A stretch of 31,873 bases of DNA from Bacteroidales bacterium (GTDB lineage Bacteria > Bacteroidota > Bacteroidia > Bacteroidales > SKPS01): the NCBI GenBank assembly GCA_046496455.1, contig JAWOGX010000204.1:1-31873 (forward strand), written 5' to 3'. The notes below the pieces were generated by a model, which saw only the letters and a list, made by a program, of their open reading frames with translations, had not been told where the DNA came from and did no database searches. Made by a program: the position numbers and the translations under genes. Below, piece after piece: positions 1 to 13,846 of this stretch (positions are counted from its first letter, which is position 1; every line of letters begins with the position of its first letter).

Positions 1-236
1 CTCACGGTAACGCTGGCTGCTTCCAGGGAAGTGATCAATATGCGACATGTAGGCGAGGCGGTTATATTCTTCATAAATCCAAGCCAGAAATATGTTCCCT
101 GTGATGAAATCTGACCGGATAGGGGGGAAGTCAGAAGAATAAGCATCACGGCCAGAACAACCCAGATCCTGTGCAAAGACCATAAAGGCAAGACTGCTCC
201 TGGGATATTTCTCTGCATCTGATGGATTAAGCACAT
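1..236 (-). CDS. N-terminal part (runs off window) of a secreted protein with an IgGFc-binding-like N-terminal domain
   Basis: Not in the ORF track. Hand translation of the minus strand from ATG 236 (alternative ATG 218) is open to the window edge: MCLIHQMQRNIPGAVLPLWSLHRIWVVLAVMLILLTSPLSGQISSQGTYFWLGFMKNITASPTCRILITSLEAASVTV. It has a signal peptide, then S-x-G-T-x-F-W-L-G-F-M-x-N, which I recognise from Bacteroidota IgGFc_binding-domain proteins. Confidence 0.6.
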   Translation of the reverse strand, partial: MCLIHQMQRNIPGAVLPLWSLHRIWVVLAVMLILLTSPLSGQISSQGTYFWLGFMKNITASPTCRILITSLEAASVTV

Positions 237-355
237 AAGCGAATTGCTTTATGTTGATTGCTTCCTGAGCCATTAGCCGATCTAATTGCCCTGATCTTCA
301 GTAAATTTATTATTTCTTTGACTCAATTTCTGACAATTGGTTTAAAAATTAAATT

Positions 356-363
356 TATATTTG
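356..363 (+). promoter_or_regulatory. Bacteroidota sigma70 -7 element (TATATTTG)
   Basis: Exact TAnnTTTG match ~40 nt upstream of ATG 403, in an AT-rich divergent intergenic region. Confidence 0.6.
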
Positions 364-402
364 ATGTCTTACCTTTGTGTATCCACCCAAAACCTTTTCG
401 TT

Positions 403-930
403 ATGAAAAAGCTGCTGTTTCTTTTTTCGATGGTTCTGATGGCACTTATGTTTACCGAATGTACCAAAGAGGGGCCCAGGGGGCGTCCGGGTGCCGATGG
501 AAAGGATGGCACAGACGGCAACGCCAATGTGCAATCTTATCTCTTTACAAATCCCACCACAATAGAATGGGATGCTTCCAACAGCATTTATCTCTATTAC
601 GATACTGTTTTTGCTGTCCCCGACAGTATCAGGAATGAAGGGATAATTCTGATCTATATGCAATATCAGGAGACAGGAACAGCCTGGTATTTTGTGCCCG
701 GGCTCGGGCCGAATGGTTTATGGAACACCAGGATCTGGATCACAGAAAATTATATCAGGATTTATGCCCTCAATCCTGATGGAACTTCCTACTCCGGCAC
801 CCCCCTTTTCACCCCTGTCACCATCAGGGTTGTGCTCATCCCGCCAACTGCGGCTACGGTCATCGCCCGTAAAGGCAATCCACCCAATTATGAAGACTAT
901 TTTGCGGTGGAGGAATATTTCGGCTTGTAG
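403..930 (+). CDS. Putative lipoprotein with a short collagen-like segment
   Basis: MKKLLFLFSMVLMALMFTEC signal ending in Cys, then GPRGRPGADGKDGTDG-NANV and a C-terminal DYFAVEEYFGL. This is a common Bacteroidota architecture. Start moved from 361 to ATG 403 because 356-363 is a promoter element. Confidence 0.8.
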   Translation: MKKLLFLFSMVLMALMFTECTKEGPRGRPGADGKDGTDGNANVQSYLFTNPTTIEWDASNSIYLYYDTVFAVPDSIRNEGIILIYMQYQETGTAWYFVPGLGPNGLWNTRIWITENYIRIYALNPDGTSYSGTPLFTPVTIRVVLIPPTAATVIARKGNPPNYEDYFAVEEYFGL

Positions 931-1032
931 TATCCGGTGTGTCTGTTTTTTTTCAGGGTTAGTGTTCGGAAAGCCCCACATTTCCTTACTTTTAACCTCT
1001 GAACCTGTATAGTTACCTTACACACCAATGCG

Positions 1033-2619
1033 ATGAAAATGCTCCAATGCCTTTTGCCGGTGCAGTTATTCGGCTTTCTGCTCCTTTTGTTGCCGGCCAG
1101 CCTCACTGCAGGCTCCGGTACGATTAATTTTGTGGAGACTGAAGTTGTGCTGGGCGCTGACGGCAGTGCAGTAGTTACTTATACCGTGCAATATGAGGTG
1201 ATGATAGCTCCCTTGCACGGCTTTTATTTCAGGAATGAAGACCGCCTCACCATTTCCCGTTTTCTTGACAGTGCATTTGCTGTGGATGACTTTGGCATCC
1301 GCTATCCTCTCGAGATAAAGAAGCTCTCTCACAACTATTTCGATATACTGCTGGCCAATGGAAGGGGCGTGGACCAGGGAAAGGTCACCTACTTCTTTGC
1401 CTTTGAAACCAACTTCGCCGGTGCAGAATACCTGGCTCGTACCGTAAAGGATGACAGCACCGCCCTGATGGTGTTCAGCTGGGCTCCGATGGTCTGGGAT
1501 GAAGGATTCCGGCAATCGCATTATACCCTCCGCCTGGTGCTGCCCGTCACAGTCCCCGATGGTGTGGAGGCCCGGACCTGGGTGGAGGAAAACAGCCTGA
1601 TCCTCACCGAAATGTTCATGAATAGTGAATACAGGCTTGATTATCAGAAGAATAATAAAGGAAACCTGGTGTTTCTGGTGCACAGCGAGAATCCTCCCAA
1701 CAACTACCATATGAGGGTGCAGTTTTATATGCCTGAACGCTGGTTTGGGGAGGTCCCCACCAGGGAGGACATCCGGTCGGAGCAACGGAAGAAAGACTCG
1801 GGATATTACATCGGGGGGTTCAGCATCCTTGCCCTGATCCTGGCCGGGCTGATGCGCAGCAAGCAGAAATCGATGATCAGGGCGCACAAAGGGCTGAAGG
1901 ATGTGAGCTGGGACTCCCTGAACTGGGCACCACCAAAGCTGGTGCTGGCCAACTACCAGATTCCCGGAAAAATCTGCACCGACCTCACCATCCTCGAGGC
2001 CGCCTTTTACCTGTCACTGCCCGTCAACCGGATCCTGAGCGCCATGATTGTGATGCTCGAAGGGGAGGGATATATCGAAGTGACTCAACGAGACCCCCTG
2101 CGTGGAAAGGCGGTGCCCGGCGCAAACCTGAACAACCTTGATGAGTACGAATCAAAACTCTGTTCCTCCATAGCCAATGATGGCATCTTCGCACAGGATG
2201 AGCTCGAAGCACTCATGAACCTGGTGGTAACCAATATCCAGAAAAAAGCGTGGGATTGCGATGTGGAGGAGACCAAAAAACACTATGCACAGAAGCTGAT
2301 CGACTGGGGAAAACAAAACCTGGAAGGTGATCGGGAAAAGATGACAAGTCAGGATGATCTGTGGACAGCATGGTATTACGGCTATCACCCCAACGCATGG
2401 CGTTATGTCCATAAGGATCCATGGCAATACCAGGCTGATGTCCCCGTTGAAACCGATCACCTGGTCCAGGGAAGTTTACTTCATTCCGATCTGGTACTCG
2501 ACATGAATGTCTGCCACGACGCATGCCACTCCGCCTGTCACTCTGCCTGCCATTCCGCCTGCCATTCCGCCTGCCACTCTGCCTGTCACTCTGCCTGTGT
2601 CAGCGGCGGATCACATTAG
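1033..2619 (+). CDS. DUF2207-like membrane protein with a C-terminal (CHxA)n Cys/His repeat tail; putative radical SAM substrate
   Basis: Signal peptide (~aa 1-27). N-domain VETEVVLGADGSAVVTYTVQY...HGFY resembles the DUF2207 start. One TM (YYIGGFSILALILAGLM) is followed by RSKQK (positive-inside). WAPPK...DLTILEAAFYL resembles the DUF2207 cytoplasmic part. Ends CHDACHSACHSACHSACHSACHSACHSACVSGGSH. Confidence 0.8.
   Translation: MKMLQCLLPVQLFGFLLLLLPASLTAGSGTINFVETEVVLGADGSAVVTYTVQYEVMIAPLHGFYFRNEDRLTISRFLDSAFAVDDFGIRYPLEIKKLSHNYFDILLANGRGVDQGKVTYFFAFETNFAGAEYLARTVKDDSTALMVFSWAPMVWDEGFRQSHYTLRLVLPVTVPDGVEARTWVEENSLILTEMFMNSEYRLDYQKNNKGNLVFLVHSENPPNNYHMRVQFYMPERWFGEVPTREDIRSEQRKKDSGYYIGGFSILALILAGLMRSKQKSMIRAHKGLKDVSWDSLNWAPPKLVLANYQIPGKICTDLTILEAAFYLSLPVNRILSAMIVMLEGEGYIEVTQRDPLRGKAVPGANLNNLDEYESKLCSSIANDGIFAQDELEALMNLVVTNIQKKAWDCDVEETKKHYAQKLIDWGKQNLEGDREKMTSQDDLWTAWYYGYHPNAWRYVHKDPWQYQADVPVETDHLVQGSLLHSDLVLDMNVCHDACHSACHSACHSACHSACHSACHSACVSGGSH
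2512..2598 (+). repeat. 12-bp coding tandem repeat encoding CHDA-(CHSA)6-C
   Basis: tgc cac gac gca | tgc cac tcc gcc | tgt cac tct gcc | tgc cat tcc gcc | tgc cat tcc gcc | tgc cac tct gcc | tgt cac tct gcc | tgt. Differences among the six CHSA units are all synonymous. Confidence 0.97.
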
Positions 2620-2631
2620 AAGGATCAGCAA

Positions 2632-3966
2632 ATGAAGAAACACGACAGCGATATTGCGTGGATTGACGGGTATATCCGCCGTATCAGGCCGTATGTATGG
2701 GTGAGGACGGAAGACAATCTGCTGATCAAGCGTCCGAACGTGGCTACCCGCCTGAACCATACCGGTGCTGTCCTGCTGAAAGCACTGCTCGATGGGGTAC
2801 CTTTCAGGAAGGTGCTGAAACGCGCCGGCAGCCACAGGAAAGCAGAACTGCTCTCCTTCATGCTGGCTGTAAAGGGGTACCTGGAAGGGAACCTAGACCA
2901 GTTCACCCTGAATCCGGCCGTGGAACATGCCCCGTTTGAGATGAATTTCTCCGTTTTTCCTGTTCTGTCGGAGCTGGCCATCACCTACCGCTGCAATCTG
3001 AAATGCCGGTTCTGCTACGCCGGGTGCAATGGTATTGATGAGATGACAGGGAAGTACCCGGAACTCAGCACCCTGGAGCTGAAAAGGCTGATCCGGGTGA
3101 TCTTTGAAGAGGCCAGGGTTCCTTCCATCAGTTTCACGGGTGGCGAACCGATGCTGCGCAGTGACCTATGCGAGCTGGTTGCCTGTGCCAGCCGGCTGGG
3201 AATGCGTGTCAACCTGATCACCAACGGCACCCTGGTCACCAGCGAAAAGGCAATCAAACTCAGAGAGGCCGGCCTCGACTCTGCCCAGGTCTCGATCGAA
3301 GGCACCCACCAGGCATTGCACGAGGCGCTTACCGGGGTCCCCGGCAGTTTCGGGAGGACCTTGCGTGGCATCGATGCATTGCAGGATACAGGTATCCATG
3401 TGCATACCAATACCACCCTCAATGCAATCAACGCCGAAGATGCGCTCAACCTTCCTGACTTTGTGAAAACCAGGTTCGGATTCAACAAATTCAGCATGAA
3501 CCTGGTCATACCGGTTGGAAACACCACGCTCAACAGGGAAACGGTGATCCCTTACCACCAGGCAGGGGAATGGATTGAAAAGATCCGGGATGCTGCGGCA
3601 ACAGCCGGTGTTGAGTTTATGTGGTATTCACCGGTGCCGATGTGTATGTACAACACCATCACAGCAGGACTTGGCAACAAAGGATGCAGTGCCTGCGATG
3701 GCCTTCTCTCCGTGGCCCCCGACGGATCGGTGCTCCCCTGTGCCTCTTTCGATGAGGCGGTAGGAAACCTGCTCCGTGATCTTTTCCGTGAAATCTGGGA
3801 GTCAGCACGTTGCACCTTCCTGCGGGAGAAAGGACTCGCCCATCCCCATTGCACCAACTGCAAGGACTTCAGGATTTGCAACGGGGCTTGCCCGCTTTAC
3901 TGGGAGGCCATGGGCTGCGAAGAACTCGAAAGGTTGATTGAACAAACCAATACCGTAACGATATGA
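2632..3966 (+). CDS. Radical SAM/SPASM peptide-maturase-like enzyme with putative N-terminal PqqD/RRE-like domain
   Basis: CNLKCRFC (CX3CX2C), FTGGEP, LITNG and VSIEG core motifs. SPASM region: C...GCSAC...VAPDGSVLPC...CTNCKDFRICNGAC (CX2CX5CX3C). A ~95-aa N-terminal extension contains RLNHTGAVLLKALLDG. Confidence 0.92.
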   Translation: MKKHDSDIAWIDGYIRRIRPYVWVRTEDNLLIKRPNVATRLNHTGAVLLKALLDGVPFRKVLKRAGSHRKAELLSFMLAVKGYLEGNLDQFTLNPAVEHAPFEMNFSVFPVLSELAITYRCNLKCRFCYAGCNGIDEMTGKYPELSTLELKRLIRVIFEEARVPSISFTGGEPMLRSDLCELVACASRLGMRVNLITNGTLVTSEKAIKLREAGLDSAQVSIEGTHQALHEALTGVPGSFGRTLRGIDALQDTGIHVHTNTTLNAINAEDALNLPDFVKTRFGFNKFSMNLVIPVGNTTLNRETVIPYHQAGEWIEKIRDAAATAGVEFMWYSPVPMCMYNTITAGLGNKGCSACDGLLSVAPDGSVLPCASFDEAVGNLLRDLFREIWESARCTFLREKGLAHPHCTNCKDFRICNGACPLYWEAMGCEELERLIEQTNTVTI

Positions 3967-4913
3967 CCCAACAAAATTCCGCTCAGGACGATAATATCGT
4001 GGTTTACCATCTCTTCCGGAAAATGCCCCCTGCAAAACGGCTCTTGATAGCATTCTTCCTGATTGCAGCCGGCTTCGCCTTACAGTTTTATCTGGTGCAC
4101 TTCCTGCCGGGACTGCCCATTGCCATCTTCGGAATGGTGCTCCTCCTCGTTAAGGGGTACAGCAACAAAGTGAATTTCAAAGGGTATGATCCGTCAGCAA
4201 AGTGGGAGGTGGTTGATCGCTCTGCCCTCGAACAGGTCGTGGAACTGAATGTGAAGATGAAACGGTGGGCCAGGAGCGTTACAAGCATCTCCAGTGGCAT
4301 CGGTGCATTTGTTTTCTTCATCCTCCTGATCGGGTTCTTTATTCTGGCAATGGCTGCTTATGCGAATGGCAACCAACCGCTGTTGATCGTTGGAGTGAAT
4401 GCCGCTTTGCTGATCCTCCCGTTCTGGTTTTCCGGCAACAAGAAAGTGTTGACCACGCCACGGCTGGTGGTGAAAATCAAAGGGTTTCTTTATGTGCTTG
4501 ATCAATTGAAGGACAGGCTTACAGACCATAAAGTTGATTATTATCTTTTAAAAATTGGTGGGGAAAAGAAGATTCCGGATGATGTCAAAATCAGGGTGAT
4601 GTTTAAAGACCAGCTTGAAAATTTCCTGGGGATGTATGTCCAGATTTCGGTCAATAGTGTCAGCGGATCAGACTACCCATACTTATATGTGGTCTTTATC
4701 GCAAAGAAGGGATTTGGGCTGAAGCAGCGCTTCAACCGGGTCAGTGTGCCCCGGGGGGTCGTTAAGGAGTATGAGTTGAAGAATGATGTGGAGGTCATCG
4801 TAATCAGGCAACTCACGACCAAAACCAGCGGTTACCATACCAGGCCGGCTGCGATGATGATGCTTTTCGCTTTGGGCATTGATGAGGGGATGAAGGTTGC
4901 CGGCAGGCATTAA
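3963..4913 (+). CDS. Uncharacterised membrane protein (4 predicted TM helices plus soluble C-terminal domain)
   Basis: ATGA start/stop overlap with the rSAM gene. Hydrophobic segments LLIAFFLIAAGFALQF, LPIAIFGMVLLLV, IGAFVFFILLIGFFILAMAAY and LLIVGVNAALLILPFWF. Confidence 0.8.
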   Translation: MTQQNSAQDDNIVVYHLFRKMPPAKRLLIAFFLIAAGFALQFYLVHFLPGLPIAIFGMVLLLVKGYSNKVNFKGYDPSAKWEVVDRSALEQVVELNVKMKRWARSVTSISSGIGAFVFFILLIGFFILAMAAYANGNQPLLIVGVNAALLILPFWFSGNKKVLTTPRLVVKIKGFLYVLDQLKDRLTDHKVDYYLLKIGGEKKIPDDVKIRVMFKDQLENFLGMYVQISVNSVSGSDYPYLYVVFIAKKGFGLKQRFNRVSVPRGVVKEYELKNDVEVIVIRQLTTKTSGYHTRPAAMMMLFALGIDEGMKVAGRH

Positions 4914-5021
4914 TATGCTCCCCGTATTGATGAAACTGACGGTGGGTGTGCACAACTGGGTTGATTGCCTGAGTTCTGAACCCCGCTGACCCATACGATG
5001 ATGCCAGGATCCTGAGGGCAC

Positions 5022-7910
5022 TTATTCTTTTGTGCTCCTTGCCTGCTTTACAGTAACTGTTTCCGGTTCCCTGTCCCTGTCGGGGCGCACCTCTTCCTTC
5101 AGCTTTTCCTGCTCTTCGGGGGTGAGGTAGTTCATCCATGCCGGATCGCGTTCGTCGGGGTTCACCAGTCTCACCCATTCGGCGCGGTGTTCTTTAGGCA
5201 CCTCGCTGATGTCGGGATAGAGGAGGCGGTCGGTGTAGGCCATCGGGCTTTCGCGCAGCCTCATATCCTCGTAGCCCTGCCGTTTGGCCACGATCCGGAA
5301 GTCGAACGCGGAACCGTCACTGGCGCCAGGGGCGTGTACGATGAAAGAGGTCTCACCTTTTTCAACCCACCAGTTGCCAAGATTGGCATTGGGGGTAATG
5401 AAAACCTTCATGGGATGCTTGCTGCTGATGGTTACGGTTTGAAGAAAATCGGCAGGAACCTGAACCACAGCCATACCATTCTGGATGGTAGCATTTCCGA
5501 AGTCCTCGAACCAGTTTTCCGGCGACTCCTGGCAGTAAACCTCCCTGGGACCGTCAGGGGTTCTGACCACAGCACTTTTGGTCCCTGATCCAGCCAGCCC
5601 TCCAGTGTAATACACTCCATAACTGGGTGTTGCATTTGAAGAACTTAAACTGGCATAAACACCACGGGCGTAAGCGAAACCGCTTGAGGATGCCACACTG
5701 GTACTTGCATACAATCCATAAATATATCTGCCTGCAGTCCCTGTCTGATCGTCATCAGCTATTGCCCGGAAGGCATAAACTGAAGCATCGGAAGCTCCTG
5801 TCTTCTGAACGTCGGAGTATACGCCATAAGTAGTGTATGTGCCTGGTGTGGAATTATCGATGACGAACTGTGCGCCATAAAGAGTACCTCCGGCTGTCCT
5901 GTTGAAATTCAAAAAGACACCATAGTTGTAGTCATTTCCCGGATATAGCCCAAGCATGTCACTGGCATAGGTTGAACTTGTATTGATACCGATGGAGCTG
6001 CTCAGATCATCGATCATGAAGGTGTTGTCGGAGGACCCACCGTAGCCCCAGTTTTTGATCTGGAAGTCATTGCCTGATCCCCAGGTCCCTACAACCCATT
6101 TTTCAATGCCGCTGGAACGATAAGAGATAAAATGGTTGTGGGAGTCTGATCCTTTATCTAAAATTATATATGCGTCCCCTATCCCTTTGGCACGCACCCC
6201 TCCCGAAACATCCGTGTTGATATCCAGGTTGTACGAAGGGTTGGTATTGCCAAGCCCCAGCCTTCCTTGTGAGCTTTTCAGGTAGGCCTGGTCGTTGAAG
6301 TTGATGTCTACGGTACCACCATCGCCAATTTTTACCACGTCCGTGGTCCCTTCATAAAGGTCCAGCATGGTGGCATTTCCGGCCGTAAACTTTATCCGGT
6401 CGGGTTCAAAGTAGATGTAGGTGTCTCCATCCCCGTTGTGGAAAATGTAATCATTCACGCCAACATCGCCGTTCACCGTGAGCTGGCGGTCAGGGGTATA
6501 AGTGTTTATCCCTACCTTGCCTGTATTTGCCACCACCAGATCGGGGTAGCCGGTGCCGGAATTTTGCCCGGAAATATAGATGGCATCATTCGTAGCATTA
6601 TGATAGACCCATCCATCATATACACCCTGGTCATAGAAGGCGATACCTGCGTTGGCAAGTGTGGAATTCAGGTAGACAAAGGGGGTCTGGTCATCAATAA
6701 CAAGGTCTCCGACATTAAAAAGGTGGAGGGCATTGCCTGGTGTGGATGTACCGATCCCCAGTCTTTTGGTAGTATTGTCCCATACCAGGTCATTGGAGCC
6801 GTTGAACAAGCCGTTATCGTTGAATTGGATGTTTTTGTTGGATCCGCCTATGGGGGGCATTGGCCCCTGTGGCCCCTGGGGTCCCTGAGGTCCGGTGGGT
6901 CCGGCAGCACCGTCGTTGCCCGGAAGGCCCTGAGGCCCCTGAGGGCCGGTTAATCCGACAGGGCCCTGGGGACCTTGTGGACCGATAGGGCCCGTTGCAC
7001 CGTCGTTGCCCGGAAGACCCTGCGGCCCCTGAGGTCCGGTATTACCTGTCAATCCCTGCGGCCCCTGTGGTCCGATTGGTCCGGTAGCACCGTCATTGCC
7101 CGGAGGGCCCTGAGGTCCGGTTAATCCAATGGGGCCCTGGGGACCTTGCGGACCCATAGGGCCCGTTGCACCGTCATTGCCCGGAAGGCCTTGTGGTCCT
7201 GCCGGCCCGACCGGACCAGTGGCACCCGGAGGCCCTACTGCTCCTGTATCACCAGGGACTCCTTGTGGTCCCTGCGGCCCTGCTGGCCCTTGTGGTCCAG
7301 TGGCGCCGGTTAATCCCTGCGGTCCCTGTGCCCCAGTGGCGCCGGTTAATCCCTGCGGCCCCTGTGGTCCTGTGGCGCCGGTTAACCCCTGTGGCCCTGT
7401 GGCTCCCTGTGGTCCCTGCGGCCCTGTGGCCCCCTGCGGTCCTGTGGCCCCCTGTGGACCTTGTGGCCCCTGAGGCCCTGCAGGTCCCTGAGGCCCCGGT
7501 GTCTCTGAATTTTTTGAATAAAGGGCATAGGGCACACTGAGAAGTTCAGCCTCTCCCATATTTACATAGGATGTGCCTCCTGAAGGATCAATCTCTATCC
7601 GCAAATAGCGGCTGCCAGCACCCCAGTCTATTGTGGAGAATGTACCGGAAAGAACGGTCCCCCCCCCGATACCCAACGAAAAAAGACCGTAATCATTCGT
7701 GGTCTCCATATGGGATTCAGTATAAAGAATGTTCCCTGTGGGGGAGCCGTCCAGGATTGAAATCCTCAGGGACACACCCTGGTTTGCCAGTAGAAGGCCC
7801 GATCCGTCACGGGCTACTGCCTGATAGTTGAATTTTTCCGGAACCTGCCCTTCCAGGGAAAGTGTTGCGAGTACCAGGAAAACAAGAATGAGTCTTCTGC
7901 AATTTTCCAT
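5022..7910 (-). CDS. Secreted collagen-triple-helix / tail-fibre-like protein
   Basis: Signal peptide from ATG 7910 ([21 protein letters not shown]). Conserved Bacteroidota N-domain FNYQAVARD...SVPYALY. 71 Gly-X-Y triplets. Four (L/V/I)G(I/L)(G/N)T-type fibre motifs. C-terminal [11 protein letters not shown]...[13 protein letters not shown] domain. Confidence 0.85.
6858..7496 (-). repeat. Collagen Gly-X-Y repeat, 71 uninterrupted triplets
   Basis: Counted from the translation (GPQ...GPM). Includes four higher-order G(L/P)PGNDGA(T/A)GPxGPQGPQG units. Confidence 0.95.
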
Positions 7911-8088
7911 GATAATAAATTTAGTTTGAGTAGATTGATAATGAATAACTACACGACTAAAATACAACTGAAAAGAGGAAAAAGCAAATGAATGCTGAAA
8001 TTTTTGGGAATGTTCATCCCTGGCGAATGATCAAAAGTAACGACGAAACATCAAAATATAGCTATGACCAGATGTTAACTATTTTTGA

Positions 8089-11037
8089 CTAATTCCCAAG
8101 CAATTTCAATGAGAACATCCACTCCCCCTCCGGTGAACCCGATTGCTGAAACTTTCCGGCATATCCGACAGACCAGGTTGTTTTTAAATAGGAGAACAAA
8201 ACAACTTCCATATCTACTTGAATACCTGCATTAAATACGACACCCCTGTCGTTCCCTGAAAAGGGATCAAGAAGGAGTTGCGTTGCAAAGAGGGACGATT
8301 TGATGAACGATGGATAAAGCCAGGTGAAGCCGGCATCCCGTATCCTCAGCGGTTTCAGGTTCAATTCTTCCATGATTTTCAAAAAACTTCCGGCGTAAAC
8401 AGCATCGATATCAGCACCCGGAAAGGCAAGGACATCTCTGTATTGGTCCACGGGCTGACAATCCACAATGTTATTTCTGAATCCTCCGAAGTAAAACCTG
8501 GAAAATGGGGATTCCTTTGCACCGAAAGCATGTCCGGCACTGCTCCTGATCCAGAAGCTGGTATTCCGGACACCGGGAACCAGCCATCCGAAATGTTGTT
8601 CAGAAATCAGTGATGCATAGAGGCTTTTCCCGGCCAGGTAGCTGTGTCCGGTTACAGCCCAGCGATACCCCTTTTCGTCTTCCACAGCGCCCAGCGTACG
8701 CCGAAGTTTTGAGATACCTGCCTCAATGGATGCATCCTGTAAGTCCTGTATCGGAGAAGCCACATCCTGAAATTGCGGGAGCACTTCCAAATCGCCATAA
8801 TGGTTGATGGAAAAACCGTAATACCATTTTAAAGGGGACTGAAGGAGATGGTTCTTACGGTAACTGACCCCGAGGGAGTACCCGGCACGGCTGCGACGGA
8901 TTGGCCCGAACAGGTCATAAAAATCGGTTTGATTCCAGTTCGCATGAAAAGTCCAGAACCAATAGTTCCACTTGAACTGCCCGTGAAACTTCTGCCTATC
9001 CGGGTAAGGACTCCATGGAGATCCGCCAAGAAACAGGGACATATTTGAGATGCCTGTCCGGTCACTCCAATTGATGCGGTATCCCAGTGCAATGGTTTGC
9101 TTATACCCGGAAATATCAGGAAAGGCATTGATCAGTGACATGTTCTTCAATGGAATGTATGGCGCCTCGGTAATCTTCAGGGAATCTGTATTGACATGTG
9201 AAGCGGGGGCAAGGGAATAATCTTTCAGACCGGGATTCTTTCTGATAGCCAGATTTCCCAGGAATTCAATCGGATTGGCATCTTCGAACACCTGTACCGG
9301 TATCAGGCCCGGTTGCATTCCGTTACGATGAAACTTCAGCACAAATAGTGAGTCGCTGCTGACATAAAGTGGGGCAAACAGGCCGTTATCATCGTTGGAC
9401 AGCAACTCGAAGGATTGATCTGCCAGTCCAATGCGCCAGATATTGGAAACGCCCGTATAGTATGAAGTACCAACCAAATATTGGCCATCCGGTGAAAACC
9501 GGAACTGAGACAGGGTATTGTCATCAAGCTGATGCACAGTTGTAAAGGATTTTGAGCCCATCTCAAGCGCTCCGAGATCAAACATGATCAGCGACTGTTC
9601 CCCCCGGATACCGGTGAGGGTGGCACTAAGCTTTTTGCCATCCCCTGAGATGTCCAGATCCAGCATCGACTTCCCGAAATCTGCCGTGTACATTGGAATG
9701 ATCTTGTCATAAGGTTCCGGTATTTTTACAAGTTTGGCATAACCGTTATCGTGCTGCACACCCCATAAGGAGCGGTCCGTGGGGTTAAATGCCAGATTGC
9801 CGGTCCTGGAGTATCTGATCAGGGTCTTGCGCTTCCCTGTTAACCCGTCAATCTGCACAAGGCTCCTGTATTTGTTGTTTTGTTCCGAAATAAAGATCTG
9901 TTTTCGCTCCGCATCGAATGCAAGAAATGTAACAGAATAGAGCATTGGGGAATTCACCTCGGCAACCTTTCTGATCCGGCCTGACTCTATCTCTATGGCA
10001 ACAATCTGCGCGACGGAACCCGGGTGGTTGATTGCTGCATACACGGTGTTCTCTGAGGCATCAAAACCTACCGTGGATACGCTCCCAATGGGTGCATCAG
10101 TGATGGGCCGGAAAGCATTCTGCGGATATGCCCTGATCAATGCAAGATTACTCTGCTGAAACTGGCGCTCAAACCCGATCCACTCCATCCATGCTTCCTG
10201 CACAGGTTTTCCGTAGACCCTCCTGAACTGCGTCCCATAAAAGGCACTGCTCTCATCAGTACGGGAGTAAAATGCTTTAAGCTTCTCTTCCCCATACTGT
10301 TGCGACAGGTAGGTGATAAAACGTGTTCCGTAGAGGTAAGCATTTGCCCCCACCTGAAAATCGATGGTTGTACCTTCTGTTTCAAGGCCAACAGGAGAAT
10401 AGATCCTGTCCCCTTCATTCACAATACTTCGGAAGTACATCTCGTCGTATGGGCCCAAAGCACGTCCTAAACCACCTGATGTCCAGGTTTCCAGGTAACA
10501 GGCAATCCCTTCATGATACCACCTTGGCGCATACCATCGTGGTGTGGTGAGGTAGCTCCATAAAGCGGATACCGGTGCTTTCTGATCCCTGACTACCTTC
10601 CCCAGCATCATCTTTCTCCAGAACTGATCTCGTTTGTTGGCCTTATCAGCCAGGGTGATATGGGTCAGCTCATGGTTAGACAACCACTGAAACCGCTCAC
10701 TGGAAGGTGTGATATTGAAAGCATAATTAAACGGAGATATTCCCAGCACTACCATATTAAAAGGCATCACAATGGCTCCCCCGTGCCCGTCATCCTCAAA
10801 ATCGGAGAGCATTACATACGTCATACGATGTTGATAATCCCAGTGCTCCTTGTGAAAGTCCAGGGCATTGTAGAACGTCCCTGCTACATGAGGCATCAGG
10901 TACGAATACCGCTTCCCGAAATAGATCAGTTCCATTTCAGAAGTTCCGAATCGATGAATCCTTTGCCCTGAAAGGGGATAAAAGCATCCGACCAGCAGCA
11001 GCATCAACAGGGCACAACCCCAATTGAAGCACTTCAT
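8089..11037 (-). CDS. Large outer-membrane-type protein: HExxH metallopeptidase-like domain + beta-propeller + probable C-terminal beta-barrel
   Basis: Signal peptide. HELTH plus downstream WYHEGIA (gluzincin-like). TolB/PD40-like repeats (LAFNPTDRSL, LDISGDGKKL, FRFSPDGQYL). Alternating amphipathic strands in the C-terminal ~350 aa. Confidence 0.75.
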   Translation of the reverse strand: MKCFNWGCALLMLLLVGCFYPLSGQRIHRFGTSEMELIYFGKRYSYLMPHVAGTFYNALDFHKEHWDYQHRMTYVMLSDFEDDGHGGAIVMPFNMVVLGISPFNYAFNITPSSERFQWLSNHELTHITLADKANKRDQFWRKMMLGKVVRDQKAPVSALWSYLTTPRWYAPRWYHEGIACYLETWTSGGLGRALGPYDEMYFRSIVNEGDRIYSPVGLETEGTTIDFQVGANAYLYGTRFITYLSQQYGEEKLKAFYSRTDESSAFYGTQFRRVYGKPVQEAWMEWIGFERQFQQSNLALIRAYPQNAFRPITDAPIGSVSTVGFDASENTVYAAINHPGSVAQIVAIEIESGRIRKVAEVNSPMLYSVTFLAFDAERKQIFISEQNNKYRSLVQIDGLTGKRKTLIRYSRTGNLAFNPTDRSLWGVQHDNGYAKLVKIPEPYDKIIPMYTADFGKSMLDLDISGDGKKLSATLTGIRGEQSLIMFDLGALEMGSKSFTTVHQLDDNTLSQFRFSPDGQYLVGTSYYTGVSNIWRIGLADQSFELLSNDDNGLFAPLYVSSDSLFVLKFHRNGMQPGLIPVQVFEDANPIEFLGNLAIRKNPGLKDYSLAPASHVNTDSLKITEAPYIPLKNMSLINAFPDISGYKQTIALGYRINWSDRTGISNMSLFLGGSPWSPYPDRQKFHGQFKWNYWFWTFHANWNQTDFYDLFGPIRRSRAGYSLGVSYRKNHLLQSPLKWYYGFSINHYGDLEVLPQFQDVASPIQDLQDASIEAGISKLRRTLGAVEDEKGYRWAVTGHSYLAGKSLYASLISEQHFGWLVPGVRNTSFWIRSSAGHAFGAKESPFSRFYFGGFRNNIVDCQPVDQYRDVLAFPGADIDAVYAGSFLKIMEELNLKPLRIRDAGFTWLYPSFIKSSLFATQLLLDPFSGNDRGVVFNAGIQVDMEVVLFSYLKTTWSVGYAGKFQQSGSPEGEWMFSLKLLGN

Positions 11038-11047
11038 ATCAGAAGTG

Positions 11048-12040
11048 TCATATTATAAAACCAAGAAACTGATTGTCAAACAGTCTTAATAATCCAATTT
11101 GCTCCTGACTAGCAATGCCAAGGCTTATGGTCTCCTGATTTCCTATGCGCGATGCATCCAGAAGGGTGGTAAGTCCCGCCACAATCTGATCAGCGATGAC
11201 GGGTAAGCCATCATTCAGAAACAGACCCAGCTCATCCATGTTCAGCAATTGCTGATCTCCTGAAATATTCCGGAGGTCAGAGGCAATCACCCCTTGAAGC
11301 GTTGCTTTGAACGTTTCGGCCGCAACCAGTTCCCGTACACCTTCCTCATTGTTCATTAACTTTTTCTTGTCCAGGTAACGAAGGGTGGGTTTGTCCTGCG
11401 CGACGACAGCTGCCGTGGTCATATTCAATACAAGGATATCATGTGCATCCTGTAGTTCAGGGGTCGAAAGTAATGGATTGGCAGATAAGTAACTTGATAT
11501 AGCATTGATATAACCCAGTATGGCTCCGTCAAAACTACGGATCCTGGCAATGGCATCCTGTGCATTGTTGAGGTAGAAAATCACAGGTATCTGTAAAGTG
11601 GTATCAAGGGATGAAACCGCGTCAATCGCTGTCAGAATCTCAACTCTTGACGTGCCCAGATAAGTTTCCATTTTCTTCAGCACTGCCTGATATTGCAGGA
11701 GTTCCTGAACATTTGATGCCTGCTTCTGATCGGATGTGATGCGATCGGTTGCGTTCAACACCTGCTGCAGATCGGATGCAGTGCGTACGGCATAATAGTA
11801 ATAATAGGTAAGATACCGCTCATACTGCGCCCTCTTTGCCGTGTCGTCCAACAGCTCATTTCTCAGTTTAATGTCATCTTCTGTTACCTGCACGTTCCGG
11901 TAACGGTCAACCTTGCCGATGGTGCCAGCGAGATCCTTTTTGTCTGTTTTTGGATAATCTACATAAAGGCCAATAAAAAACCCAATGACCAATGTGAGCG
12001 CAGCAATGAGGATTGCATGAATTCGTTTGATTTTTTTCAT
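11048..12040 (-). CDS. Hypothetical bitopic membrane protein
   Basis: MKKIKRIH + hydrophobic AILIAALTLVIGFFIGLYV anchor, then a helical soluble domain. Start placed at ATG 12040 rather than 12094. Confidence 0.75.
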   Translation of the reverse strand: MKKIKRIHAILIAALTLVIGFFIGLYVDYPKTDKKDLAGTIGKVDRYRNVQVTEDDIKLRNELLDDTAKRAQYERYLTYYYYYAVRTASDLQQVLNATDRITSDQKQASNVQELLQYQAVLKKMETYLGTSRVEILTAIDAVSSLDTTLQIPVIFYLNNAQDAIARIRSFDGAILGYINAISSYLSANPLLSTPELQDAHDILVLNMTTAAVVAQDKPTLRYLDKKKLMNNEEGVRELVAAETFKATLQGVIASDLRNISGDQQLLNMDELGLFLNDGLPVIADQIVAGLTTLLDASRIGNQETISLGIASQEQIGLLRLFDNQFLGFII

Positions 12041-12070
12041 GGTGTAGTTGGCGTTAATGGATGAACCTTG

Positions 12071-12078
12071 CGAAGTTA
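12071..12078 (-). promoter_or_regulatory. Possible -7 element variant (TAACTTCG)
   Basis: One mismatch to TAnnTTTG, ~30 nt upstream of ATG 12040. Confidence 0.35.
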
Positions 12079-12118
12079 GAAAGTATGGATGCATATTCCA
12101 AATATTCCACAGTGTAAT

Positions 12119-13117
12119 TCAGGATTCAAGTTGAGTTATCTTCCAAAGTTCACGATATTTCATCTTCAGCAGCGGTTGCAGAGCGAGCATACCTGTAACG
12201 CCGATTCTTCTTCTTAAGGCAGAAAACTCTTTCAGTTTATCAGAAACATCCTGTGTTTCCATCCATTGAATGCCCGCTTCCTTCAGCAGGATATTTCTTT
12301 TAACCAGCAGCGACAGTTCAAGATGCAGTGTCAGATAACAGTAAATATCAAGGATCATTTCCGGAGAGCATTGGTGCTTTAGGGATAGGAGGTATTTACC
12401 CGCTTTGTCATCAGCAAGCTCACCCCTCTTGATCATACCCAGCAATCTGACTTCAGTAGCAAGTTCAATCTCCATCCAGGCACGCAGAAGTTGCCCGGCC
12501 CGGTAAAAAGTGATCCCGAAGATCAGGGGGAATAAGATAAAAATCAACATGGTTTGCAGATAGAGATCAAGCAGGAAATGGTTGAATGCGCTGTGAAGCA
12601 TTATGGCGATAACCAGGCCCGGTATTACAGCAACTGCCGGGTGGATATCCCGCTGGATGCCCGCTATCATGACTATCGCAAACAAGGCGCATCCACCTCC
12701 ATGCATCATGGAGGTTCCAAAACCTCGTAAAACCCAAACCATCAAACCCTGATCAGTCCCTGCACCGAAGATCAGATGCAGGTTCTCGGCGAGGGCAAAG
12801 CCTGCACCAACGGCAAAGCCATAGATGGCAGCATCAATGGTAAATCCGATATGTCGCTTTCTGATCAGAAAGATGATAAATAATGCTTTAATCAGTTCTT
12901 CGGTAACCGGCGACACATATCTTATAAATTGCTGGTAATCAAATGCTGTTGCCTGATTAACGGTAGTATTGACGATCCATGCCACCTGTGCACCCACTAT
13001 TCCCCAGGCAAAGGAGTATATCAACCACTTTCGTGCAACCAGCTTAAAACTGTCGAGGAGATACAACCCGGCGAGAAACAGGACTGCGGGGAGAAAACTA
13101 ACCAGCGCTGCAACCAT
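12119..13117 (-). CDS. prsW: PrsW-family glutamic-type intramembrane protease with C-terminal extension
   Basis: VTEELIKA (EExxK), GFALAENL (FxxxEN), SMMHG and LHSAFN motifs, multiple TMs. The 13118-13261 extension in the ORF track runs through the heptamer repeat and is probably non-coding. Confidence 0.85.
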   Translation of the reverse strand: MVAALVSFLPAVLFLAGLYLLDSFKLVARKWLIYSFAWGIVGAQVAWIVNTTVNQATAFDYQQFIRYVSPVTEELIKALFIIFLIRKRHIGFTIDAAIYGFAVGAGFALAENLHLIFGAGTDQGLMVWVLRGFGTSMMHGGGCALFAIVMIAGIQRDIHPAVAVIPGLVIAIMLHSAFNHFLLDLYLQTMLIFILFPLIFGITFYRAGQLLRAWMEIELATEVRLLGMIKRGELADDKAGKYLLSLKHQCSPEMILDIYCYLTLHLELSLLVKRNILLKEAGIQWMETQDVSDKLKEFSALRRRIGVTGMLALQPLLKMKYRELWKITQLES

Positions 13118-13147
13118 AGGATCAATAAAGTATTGATGTGCAATGTT

Positions 13148-13223
13148 AAAGTAAAAAGGCAAAAGGCAAAAGGCAAAAGTAAAAAGGCAAAAGTAAAAAG
13201 GCAAAAGTAAAAAGGCAAAAGTA
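13148..13223. repeat. Heptamer tandem repeat (AAAAGGC / AAAAGTA)
   Basis: 13154-13223 holds 10 full heptamers (6 AAAAGGC, 4 AAAAGTA), preceded by a partial unit. Confidence 0.95.
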
Positions 13224-13267
13224 TCAAAGTAAGTCAAATCGCGAATCCGGTTACATAGCACCCGGTG

Positions 13268-13387
13268 CTACCCTTTTTCAACCACTTCGTGGTTGTCTGG
13301 GATGCCATCCCCCAACCCCAAAGGGATTAACTATGGGTAGAGAGATGCAGCCCAAAGAAAATCCCGAAGGGATTGAATCGGGGTAAG
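13268..13387. repeat. Three REP-like hairpin units (stem-GAA-stem + GGGTA(A)G tail), one inverted
   Basis: CAACCAC-TTC-GTGGTTG (13279-13295) preceded by CTACCC; AACCCC-AAA-GGGATT...GGGTAG; AATCCC-GAA-GGGATT (13360-13374)...GGGTAAG. Confidence 0.65.
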
Positions 13388-13440
13388 ATGAGCCTCCTGA
13401 TCTTTAACCTTCACAGATAAAGCTGCTGCTGTTAATACGC

Positions 13441-13504
13441 CTAAACAGCCAAACCTTCAAACACATAACCAGCTAAAGCATTTCAACATCTAAACGGTCA
13501 ACGC
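13441..13504. repeat. Degenerate 8-nt periodic tract
   Basis: CTAAACAG CCAAACCT TCAAACAC ATAACCAG CTAAAGCA TTTCAACA TCTAAACG GTCAACGC. Confidence 0.4.
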
Positions 13505-13520
13505 TACTTAAGCATTGACA

Positions 13521-13572
13521 TACTTTTGGCTTTTCATGCCTTTAGCCTTTAGCCTTTTGCCTTTAGCCTTTA
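13521..13572. repeat. Heptamer tract (GCCTTTA/GCCTTTT), inverted relative to 13148-13223
   Basis: TACTTTT GGCTTTT, then GCCTTTA GCCTTTA GCCTTTT GCCTTTA GCCTTTA (13538-13572). GCCTTTT and TACTTTT are the reverse complements of AAAAGGC and AAAAGTA. Confidence 0.9.
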
Positions 13573-13617
13573 TGAAATTTGCGTCATTATGTTGGGTGGC
13601 GCATTGTCGCAGGCAGG

Positions 13618-13653
13618 AAAATAAAAAAGAGGCCCGTCTCCACAGGCCTCTTT
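13618..13653 (-). terminator. Rho-independent terminator downstream of tRNA-Phe
   Basis: 9-bp stem AAAGAGGCC/GGCCTCTTT with a 10-nt loop, followed on the minus strand by a U-rich run. Confidence 0.8.
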
Positions 13654-13773
13654 CAATCTCTTAGCAGTTAACCGTCAACTTATCACCCCGCCTCCGGCAG
13701 GGTGGCAGCTGCTAATAATTTGACTTCGCTCCGCTCGTCAAATCCTTGCATCTGCTCACTTTTAACTTTTTCG

Positions 13774-13846
<73 letters not shown>

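Follow-up and report, generated by a model that had tools for sequence, protein, structure and literature searches.

A radical SAM/SPASM enzyme encoded beside a Cys/His-tailed membrane protein: a three-gene cassette of bacteria, with its first two genes also paired in Asgard archaea

Radical S-adenosylmethionine (SAM)/SPASM maturases are, to our knowledge, known almost only from short, free peptides, most of which are exported; QhpC and, in 2026, CrpA stand out as rare substrates that are whole proteins. Here we describe a three-gene cassette in which an enzyme of this type is encoded next to a membrane protein that ends in a regular Cys/His repeat. The cassette was found in a DNA stretch of 31,873 nucleotides (nt) from a Bacteroidales bacterium (contig JAWOGX010000204.1 of assembly GCA_046496455.1, positions 1 to 31,873), hereafter called the window. 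It ties a peptide-maturase type of enzyme to the predicted cytoplasmic tail of a membrane protein, and it does so in bacteria as well as in Asgard archaea. The core repeat of the tail is conserved beyond almost everything else in the locus. The three genes most likely represent one functional cassette, which is probably the mark of a so far undescribed modification of an entire membrane protein.

Organization of the locus

Three co-oriented open reading frames (ORFs) fill positions 1033-4913 of the window on the forward strand. They code for a single-pass membrane protein with a Cys/His tail (gene 1), an enzyme composed of a recognition element, a radical SAM core and a SPASM domain (gene 2), and a second membrane protein (gene 3). 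Their coordinates and those of their domains are listed in Table 1. The stop codon of gene 1 (2617-2619) is followed by a 12-nt gap containing AAGGA and by the ATG of gene 2 at 2632, and an ATGA at 3963-3966 holds the overlapping stop codon of gene 2 and start codon of gene 3. This organization, as well as the gap and the overlap claimed in the original prediction, is read directly in the sequence.

It had also been claimed that no separate short precursor ORF occurs near the cassette. In the two flanking intergenic stretches (about 100 nt each), the sole ORFs are of 21 and 30 amino acids (aa) and have no Cys/His content, and the tail is fused to the gene 1 body at other loci as well (see below). 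A classical ribosomally made, post-translationally modified peptide (RiPP) with a free short precursor was rejected, because no such ORF is present at this locus and none is conserved elsewhere. Scanning of positions 850-5100 for promoters and terminators gave fewer sites than were obtained with shuffled sequences and was uninformative.

The Cys/His tail of gene 1

Gene 1 ends in CHDA-(CHSA)6-CVSGGSH (residues 494-528), exactly as originally described. The tail comprises eight Cys at a spacing of four residues and seven Cys-His pairs, and it contains neither Lys nor Arg. At the DNA level it forms a repeat with a period of 12 and 7.2 copies. Self-identity of this repeat is only 84%, and it is therefore regarded as an old, selected coding repeat rather than a product of recent slippage.

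No part of gene 1 is conserved more strongly than the tail. Among 98 non-identical gene 1 orthologues, the Cys, His and Ala positions are occupied by these residues in 92-98 sequences, and the six exceptions are Asgard variants offset by one residue. Outside the tail, mean column identity is 29%. The run of Cys at spacing four is eight long in 42 orthologues, nine in 37 and ten in 13, so that 92 of the 98 fall between eight and ten. Only the residue that separates His from Ala varies: Ser predominates, Asp or Asn appear in the first units, and Gly, Gln or Thr are occasional. Codons, in turn, are scrambled among orthologues: all codon families occur, with both TCN and AGY for Ser. Further, in environmental contigs of close strains, all 15 listed differences within the tail are synonymous, compared with 7 non-synonymous differences out of 21 elsewhere in gene 1. 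The tail is neither a chance sequence nor a slippage artefact, and the pattern of substitutions indicates extreme purifying selection.

Two points concern the sampling. In the tail-first search (see below), the DNA pattern fixed positions -8 to +4, counted from the last Cys, and left earlier units free. The 22 loci retrieved by means of the enzyme form an unbiased sample for tail conservation.

Word search yielded 32 homologues of gene 1. Among 1.84 billion representatives clustered at 50% identity, 261 relatives were found at E <=1e-3, 53 of them at E <=1e-30. Two protein searches gave 43 homologues of at least 480 aa. The repeat is present in 28 of these; in three the tail is short or cut, two stop before the tail (at least one being a partial record) and one is frame-shifted. 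Homologues P0001 and P0008 end in LPRCLSLGLPFGLPL…, which corresponds to the +1 frame of the repeat DNA (compare the ORF at 2523-2666 of the window); such frame-shifted calls indicate that the repeat is error-prone in assemblies. An Asgard variant of the tail is interrupted by internal ACV breaks (…ACHSACVSHDACHS…ACVCHSACHS…ACVSGGFR). One environmental run labelled as metatranscriptomic, a label that is no proof of transcription, spans positions 1507-2583 in gene 1 as well as part of gene 3.

Gene 2 is a peptide-maturase type of enzyme

The gene 2 product matches the Pfam models Radical_SAM (E 2.6e-27) and SPASM (E 2.6e-8, 34.4 bits, cut-off 21.5). The CX3CX2C motif (C121, C125 and C128) is invariant in 60 of 60 orthologues. 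SPASM residues C338, C352, C370, C407, C410, C416 and C420 are kept in at least 59 of these, and C355 in 55. The predicted combination of CX3CX2C with a complete SPASM Cys set, eight residues in all, thus stands.

The N-terminal part was predicted to be a RiPP recognition element (RRE). This is borne out by its modelled beta3-alpha3 fold and by PqqD matches (PF05402) in 17 of 60 orthologues, with the best E of 3.6e-9. The protein from the window misses PF05402 at E 0.05 yet aligns with the residues that are invariant in this domain (R25, D28, I32, P35 and N42). In the AlphaFold2 (AF2) model (pLDDT, the predicted score in the local distance difference test, 93; predicted template modelling score, pTM, 0.92), the domain consists of helices (H) and strands (E) in the order H9-21, E22-25, E30-33, E37-40, H43-53, H58-65 and H67-84, with pLDDT above 90 across residues 9-84.

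Fold search places RiPP maturases and their relatives (SkfB, SuiB, anSME, ChlB and PqqE) closest among solved structures. The alignment with SuiB extends over about 440 columns, including the SuiB RRE, at a TM-score of 0.65-0.67. When solved structures were scored with the gene 2 profile, the order was SkfB (117 bits), PqqE (92), SuiB (84), TigE (74), anSME (64), CteB (62) and ChlB (32). Against NCBIfam, the best scores are those of AhbD (150 bits, cut-off 500), NirJ2 (139) and GeoRSP (130); PqqE (106), StsB (89), ACGX-rSAM (85) and PapB (73) rank lower. No specific NCBIfam cut-off is reached; only the generic Radical_SAM and SPASM models are passed. On the basis of domain content and model, gene 2 is assigned to the RRE-dependent radical SAM/SPASM enzymes, that is, to the peptide-maturase type.

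Two further approaches did not discriminate. In proximity profiling (PMC10288494), gene 2, placed by motif landmarks, shows Y129, T169, T197 and S221 at positions 1-4 (positions 5-6 are unmapped), compared with F, F, T, S in CteB and Y, T, I, S in StsB, and no conclusion was drawn. Prediction of a complex between gene 2 and residues 400-528 of gene 1 gave a score of 0.00, which is neither support nor counter-evidence.

Co-occurrence of the three genes

Gene 2 orthologues were searched in one genome per species. Twenty-two loci at 40-55% identity were obtained from many phyla; beyond them, identity falls to 27%, the range of generic radical SAM enzymes. All 22 loci carry gene 1 with the tail, directly upstream of gene 2 in 21 cases and on both sides of it in locus L018. 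None of these gene 2 orthologues therefore lacks a neighbouring tail gene. Gene 3 was detected by BLAST in 19 of the 22 loci and by hidden Markov model (HMM) in L018; in the remaining two the contigs are cut off. Clustering of ORFs from the 22 loci showed that the conserved neighbourhood consists of the triad only: peptidases, exporters, transporters and additional tailoring genes are not conserved alongside.

The converse search started from the tail. A degenerate DNA pattern covering the last two units and CVS-x-G gave at least 120 loci. Among the matches listed, 96 have no less than 1.5 kb of downstream sequence, and 85 of these contain gene 2 in the same 8-kb block. The tail is fused to the gene 1 body in all 84 loci with enough upstream DNA, and a free-standing peptide version was not found among these matches. 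Ten of the eleven tail loci without gene 2 nearby were followed into their genomes, and nine of them possess an orthologue elsewhere (E 1e-83 to 1e-113). In four of these nine, re-fetched sequences show gene 2 head-to-head with gene 1 at a distance of about 0.5 kb, as in other Asgard loci. Since the pairing persists in a second gene arrangement, a functional link is argued for, not mere operon inheritance.

Of 63 loci with room for gene 3, 59 give a match to its HMM, and the four misses are Asgard loci; gene 3 was not found within the examined stretch of head-to-head loci. By these counts, gene 3 is a near-obligate partner in bacteria.

Several loci deviate from the common layout. Genes 1 and 2 are head-to-head, not in tandem, in Asgard loci L084, L138, L133, L142, L148, L161, L203-L205 and L212 (Thorarchaeota, Promethearchaeota). 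In L018 (4229-11168), from a proteobacterial metagenome-assembled genome (MAG), the order is gene 1 - gene 2 - gene 3 - second gene 1 - second gene 3, so that one enzyme is accompanied by two tail proteins. In five loci, a conserved soluble protein of about 129 aa without Pfam family is encoded directly upstream of gene 1 (L004:2-730, L005:3749-4138, L008:1975-2364, L021:3721-4176 and L022:326-715). These five belong to the subfamily with the pre-tail sequence …ACHSACYVHTACHDA. Cys-rich tails were also sought near more distant radical SAM genes (L023-L080, below 30% identity), where no pattern was seen.

Membrane proteins of the cassette

Gene 1 starts with a signal-like segment (hydropathy 2.13 over residues 6-24), which may be cleaved, and carries a single later transmembrane (TM) helix; hydropathy scan detects no second TM segment after residue 274. 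The original prediction of a cytoplasmic tail is retained on the strength of these two features. The motif RSKQK, to which the orientation had also been ascribed, does not hold as a determinant: K/R counts on the two flanks of the helix are 5 and 6, and RSKQK alone therefore does not set the topology. The gene 1 tail and gene 2 are both predicted to be on the cytoplasmic side, as are the soluble parts of gene 3.

Conserved residues of the outer domain include E35, F64, W150, P152, W155, E193, N197 and Y232. Conservation within gene 1 is lowest over the roughly 70 residues that precede the tail. Their number varies as well, and a flexible tether is suggested by these features. Within this stretch, pre-tail motifs differ among subfamilies and are semi-conserved inside each of them.

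The assignment of gene 1 as a DUF2207-type protein holds at family level only. The N-domain PF09972 is matched by 20 of 60 orthologues (best E 1.4e-7), some of them above the cut-off of 24.4 bits, and neighbours in ESM Atlas are clusters of DUF2207 type. The protein from the window itself does not match PF09972 at E <=0.1, nor does it reach the cut-off of any Pfam or NCBIfam 20.0 model. DUF2207_C (PF20990) is matched by none of the 60 orthologues and by no protein of the window's genome.

Gene 3 was expected to be a four-TM partner. Hydropathy, helices of the AF2 model (pLDDT 91) and presence of its HMM across loci agree with that expectation. The TM helices form two hairpins with a K/R-rich loop between the pairs and are followed by an alpha/beta domain of about 155 residues. 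No Pfam or NCBIfam 20.0 family reaches its cut-off, and structural neighbours in AlphaFold DB and ESM Atlas are limited to its own family. The best PDB matches of the domain (type III secretion chaperones, YbjN and frataxin) have Z of 5.8-7.8, which is noise level; a chaperone-like, peptide-holding role is only a lead. One gene 3 orthologue matches DUF2207_C at E 0.0012, raising the idea that a DUF2207 protein might be split between genes 1 and 3. A different orthologue was automatically named "Stimulator of interferon genes protein" (AFDB A0A3D0VS16), a name that is unsupported by fold searches, since no STING chain is found among the 50 best structure matches.

Table 1. Features of the cassette and its surroundings (window coordinates)
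Feature	Position	Strand	Description	Evidence
Lipoprotein-like ORF	361-930	+	189 aa, short GxxGxx stretch
Gene 1	1033..2619	+	528 aa, DUF2207-like single-pass membrane protein with Cys/His tail	ORF, homologues
Signal-peptide-like N-terminus	1033..1119	+	residues 1-29, hydrophobic core 6-24	hydropathy
Extracytoplasmic domain, DUF2207-N-like	1120..1797	+	residues 30-255	conserved residues; PF09972 matches in orthologues
Single TM helix	1798..1854	+	residues 256-274	hydropathy scan
Conserved cytoplasmic domain	1900..2292	+	residues ~290-420, KAWDCDxEATK motif	alignment conservation profile
Linker	2293..2511	+	residues 421-493, poorly conserved, length-variable, including semi-conserved pre-tail element	per-column conservation mostly <0.5
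Cys/His tail, proposed substrate	2512..2616	+	residues 494-528	sequence, orthologue conservation
Gene 1-gene 2 gap	2620..2631	+	12 nt, AAGGA ribosome-binding-like motif	sequence
Gene 2	2632..3966	+	444 aa, RRE - radical SAM - SPASM enzyme	Pfam, AF2 model, solved folds
PqqD-like RRE	2632..2946	+	residues 1-105	AF2 fold, PF05402 in orthologues
Radical SAM core	2947..3621	+	CX3CX2C (C121, C125, C128)	Pfam, alignment
SPASM domain	3622..3963	+	7-8 conserved Cys	Pfam, alignment
Gene 3	3963..4913	+	316 aa, 4-TM protein with cytoplasmic alpha/beta C-terminal domain	ORF, AF2 model
Gene 3 membrane part	4032..4436	+	four TM helices (residues 24-42, 45-63, 113-131, 140-158)	hydropathy, charges, model
Gene 3 cytoplasmic domain	4443..4910	+	residues 161-316, IRQxTTKxSGYHT motif	conserved columns
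Collagen-type protein	5022-7967	-	981 aa, long Gly-x-y repeats	Pfam Collagen, E 3.4e-32
tRNA-Phe gene	13773-13846	-

Distribution and genomic setting

A tree of 60 gene 2 sequences bears 23 phylum-level labels, among them Bacillota, Spirochaetota, Planctomycetota, Thermodesulfobacteriota, Acidobacteriota, Nitrospirota, Armatimonadota and Thorarchaeota. Its clades mix phyla: the one containing the window's sequence (15 rows) includes Thermodesulfobacteriota, Bacteroidota, Pseudomonadota, Verrucomicrobiota, Chloroflexota and Gemmatimonadota. Distribution of carriers is patchy, and the cassette was not found in 400 sampled genomes of the window's phylum, in 6 genomes of the same genus or in 14 of the same order. 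The complete triad is present in two cultured strains, Acetivibrio alkalicellulosi DSM 17461 (L015, VLTH01000002.1) and Desulfobulbus alkaliphilus DSM 24258 (L119, NZ_JAFFQC010000005.1), the former record being flagged UNVERIFIED_CONTAM by its submitter.

DNA synteny with three genomes of the same genus (about 68% identity) begins only to the right of the tRNA-Phe gene. At least 13.7 kb to the left of it (window 1-13760) was not found in these genomes. This region holds the cassette, the collagen-like protein, a 982-aa protein that is likewise missing from the same-genus genomes, a 348-aa protein and a PrsW-like protease; no integrase was seen in it. G+C content is somewhat higher here, at 0.53-0.55 compared with about 0.45-0.49 nearby. 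These at least 13.7 kb beside the tRNA-Phe gene, at the end of the contig, look like a variable region or island. Such a position, together with the higher G+C, points to horizontal acquisition of the cassette.

The cassette lies between the lipoprotein-like ORF and the collagen-type protein, neither of which is conserved with it. Two stretches of 50-80 nt near the tRNA gene (around 13147-13230 and 13517-13573) match dozens of places in same-genus genomes at 80-97% identity and represent a dispersed small repeat family adjoining this gene.

Proposed function and alternative explanations

We lean towards the view that gene 2 modifies the cytoplasmic tail of gene 1 in place. Below the single-pass membrane protein, the tail would be suspended in the cytoplasm by a flexible linker about 70 residues long. 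The RRE of gene 2 may dock on the semi-conserved, subfamily-specific segment that precedes the tail, and the SPASM domain would carry auxiliary Fe-S clusters. The enzyme could then work along the repeat, making one small intramolecular crosslink per four-residue unit, while gene 3 probably holds enzyme or tail at the membrane. The modified tail would stay on the protein as a rigid, His/Cys-lined and membrane-tethered module, plausibly metal-binding or redox-active.

As for the chemistry, thioether crosslinks are our first choice, if a tentative one, and the bond would be a Cys-sulfur-to-carbon thioether of sactionine or ranthionine type. They are favoured by analogy, because Cys-repeat cores located beside RRE-radical SAM-SPASM enzymes have so far proved to be thioether substrates, because CrpC acts on a whole protein, and because PapB and NxxcB give small in-register rings. 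A mixed option is conceivable too, in which crosslinks pre-organise the remaining Cys and His for metal binding.

Several points weigh against modification of the tail, or against thioethers as its form. The C-x3-C and H-x3-H spacing is also that of a metal-binding helix. The acceptor of the thioether is not obvious, and it is the sole variable position (Ser, Asp, Asn, Gly, Gln or Thr) that resembles known ranthionine acceptors. Thioether formation alone leaves the invariance of His unexplained. Family scores of gene 2 are headed by AhbD and NirJ, far under their 500-bit cut-offs, and the thioether synthases StsB and PapB score lower. Eight SPASM Cys would fully ligate both auxiliary clusters, in contrast to CteB with its open site.

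A more far-reaching possibility, and a doubtful one, is that a permanent, protein-anchored ladder of crosslinks in the (Ala-Cys-His-x)8-10 tail constitutes a protein-derived metal or redox module of a new kind on the cytoplasmic side of the membrane. In that case, the single TM helix would couple the module to the conserved outer domain, and such modules would occur in Asgard archaea and in over 20 bacterial phyla. The process might also be the first radical SAM maturation of "RiPP type" with the tail of an integral membrane protein as its natural substrate.

Two alternatives are both unlikely, and about equally so. The first, the main rival, keeps the substrate and changes the bond: a three-residue cyclophane from His-C2 to Ala-Cbeta would be formed in each H-x-A, leaving Cys free as metal ligands or anchors of auxiliary clusters. 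It neatly accounts for invariant His and Ala and for the variable residue between them (the aromatic-X2-X3 logic of triceptides). HaaB makes the same bond on H-A-A (PMC11499958). A set of eight SPASM Cys also suits full ligation of an auxiliary cluster, which is the state in C-C-forming enzymes such as SuiB. However, the invariant Cys of every unit would be left without a catalytic role, ChlB, a triceptide synthase, scores far lower with the gene 2 profile than the sactisynthase SkfB (32 versus 117 bits), and the 25 best NCBIfam matches of gene 2 include no family of triceptide type.

According to the second, the tail is an unmodified Cys/His helix binding metal or Fe-S, on which gene 2 docks or exchanges a cluster or electrons while acting on another membrane substrate. 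A spacing of four places Cys-Cys and His-His pairs on one helical face, and i, i+4 spacing is the classic chelating geometry. Location of all three proteins at the membrane and the lack of a conserved protease or exporter in the neighbourhoods are in agreement with such a helix. On the other hand, the combination of RRE and SPASM is the signature of peptide-modifying enzymes, invariance reaches the non-ligand Ala, repeat number is tightly bounded, and no other candidate substrate gene is conserved nearby.

It is less probable still that the tail is a sacrificial multi-copy precursor, cut off after modification by housekeeping proteases to yield a secreted peptide, or several copies of a small Cys/His-derived cofactor by the logic of PQQ and mycofactocin. 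Identical repeated units and cross-phylum invariance do resemble cofactor precursors rather than antibiotics, and a flexible linker lies ahead of the tail. Against this, the triad lacks any conserved peptidase, transporter or further tailoring gene, and in all 84 tail loci with enough upstream DNA the repeat is fused to a conserved membrane protein of about 490 aa, no free peptide version having been found among them. Finally, covalent haem attachment of the c-type-cytochrome kind is so improbable that it was rejected: C-H-S-A-C-H reads as CX3CH and the best family scores of gene 2 are those of the haem-pathway enzymes AhbD and NirJ, but these scores are far under their cut-offs, the tail is predicted to lie in the cytoplasm while c-type haem is attached outside it, and the cytochrome c assembly family PF01578 was found in only three of six carrier genomes, those without it being incomplete MAGs.

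If the tail is modified by gene 2, as we favour, it would represent a new post-translational modification, possibly with new chemistry on a Cys-His dipeptide repeat. It would also provide the first functional handle on a branch of the large and function-less DUF2207 family, and would widen the case for RiPP-type enzymes that mature structural or catalytic proteins.

Comparison with known systems

No paper on the triad was found in the literature on radical SAM enzymes with DUF2207, on Cys-repeat targets or on Cys/His tails of membrane proteins. A mention of DUF2207 in a paper on 5-thiohistidine concerns an unrelated gene neighbourhood. Genes 1 and 3 are under every NCBIfam and Pfam cut-off, and gene 2 passes generic models only, which answers the question whether the triad has already been named. 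To judge from these scores and those given below, it is a system without name or paper, outside the CrpC, CXXX-repeat and ACGX-repeat families.

In layout, gene 1 resembles the DUF2207 family (PF09972/PF20990), with a predicted signal peptide, a beta-rich outer domain, a TM helix and a cytoplasmic domain. It differs in the absence of the multi-TM DUF2207_C region, and both the Cys/His tail and the radical SAM partner are additions.

The CXXX-repeat system (TIGR04117/TIGR04115) is defined bioinformatically, and no paper on its chemistry was found. It resembles the cassette in having Cys at every fourth residue of a presumed substrate encoded beside a radical SAM/SPASM enzyme. Its targets, however, are short free peptides, whereas here the tail is contained in a 528-aa protein. 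The isolated tail scores 15.1 bits against TIGR04117 (cut-off 50), full-length gene 1 gives no match, and gene 2 reaches 13.8 bits against TIGR04115 (cut-off 350). Three gene 1 homologues carry a precomputed match to PF27846, a newer Pfam model. Similarly, the ACGX-repeat system (target TIGR04341, radical SAM enzyme TIGR04340) combines a tetrapeptide A-C-x-x repeat with a radical SAM/SPASM enzyme, but with Gly where our tail has His and with free peptides as targets. TIGR04341 has no match at E <=10 in the window's genome, and gene 2 scores 84.7 bits against rSAM_ACGX (cut-off 400).

In the PapB/freyrasin and NxxcB systems, a single radical SAM/SPASM enzyme links each of several evenly spaced Cys to a residue three or four positions distant, and H-x-x-C of the tail parallels N-x-x-C. 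Acceptors are Asp or Asn in these systems and substrates are free exported peptides; gene 2 scores 72.9 bits against PapB (cut-off 340). The aromatic-X2-X3 motif of HaaB and other triceptide synthases (PMC11499958) is matched by H-x-A in every tail unit, with the middle residue alone variable. Triceptide precursors are nevertheless free peptides without a Cys per unit, and gene 2 shows no specific sequence relation to the synthases in the profile search of solved structures, where ChlB scores below SkfB, PqqE, SuiB and CteB.

The proposed crosslinking of a whole protein by a radical SAM enzyme would be a feature shared with QhpD/QhpC. CrpC of Methanococcus voltae, also an RRE-radical SAM-SPASM enzyme, installs ranthionine thioethers, -2 Da each, on CrpA, a whole Cys-repeat protein (PMC13692751). 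Common to both systems are a three-gene cluster and an enzyme of this type encoded beside a large protein with a C-terminal Cys-repeat region. Gene 2 is not a member of the CrpC family TIGR04463 (42.4 bits, cut-off 525). The paper on CrpA does not describe it as a membrane protein and nowhere uses the word "membrane" (PMC13692751). Repeats of CrpA comprise 17 residues with C-x-x-Q/D, whereas those of the cassette comprise four (A-C-H-x) and are carried by a membrane protein.

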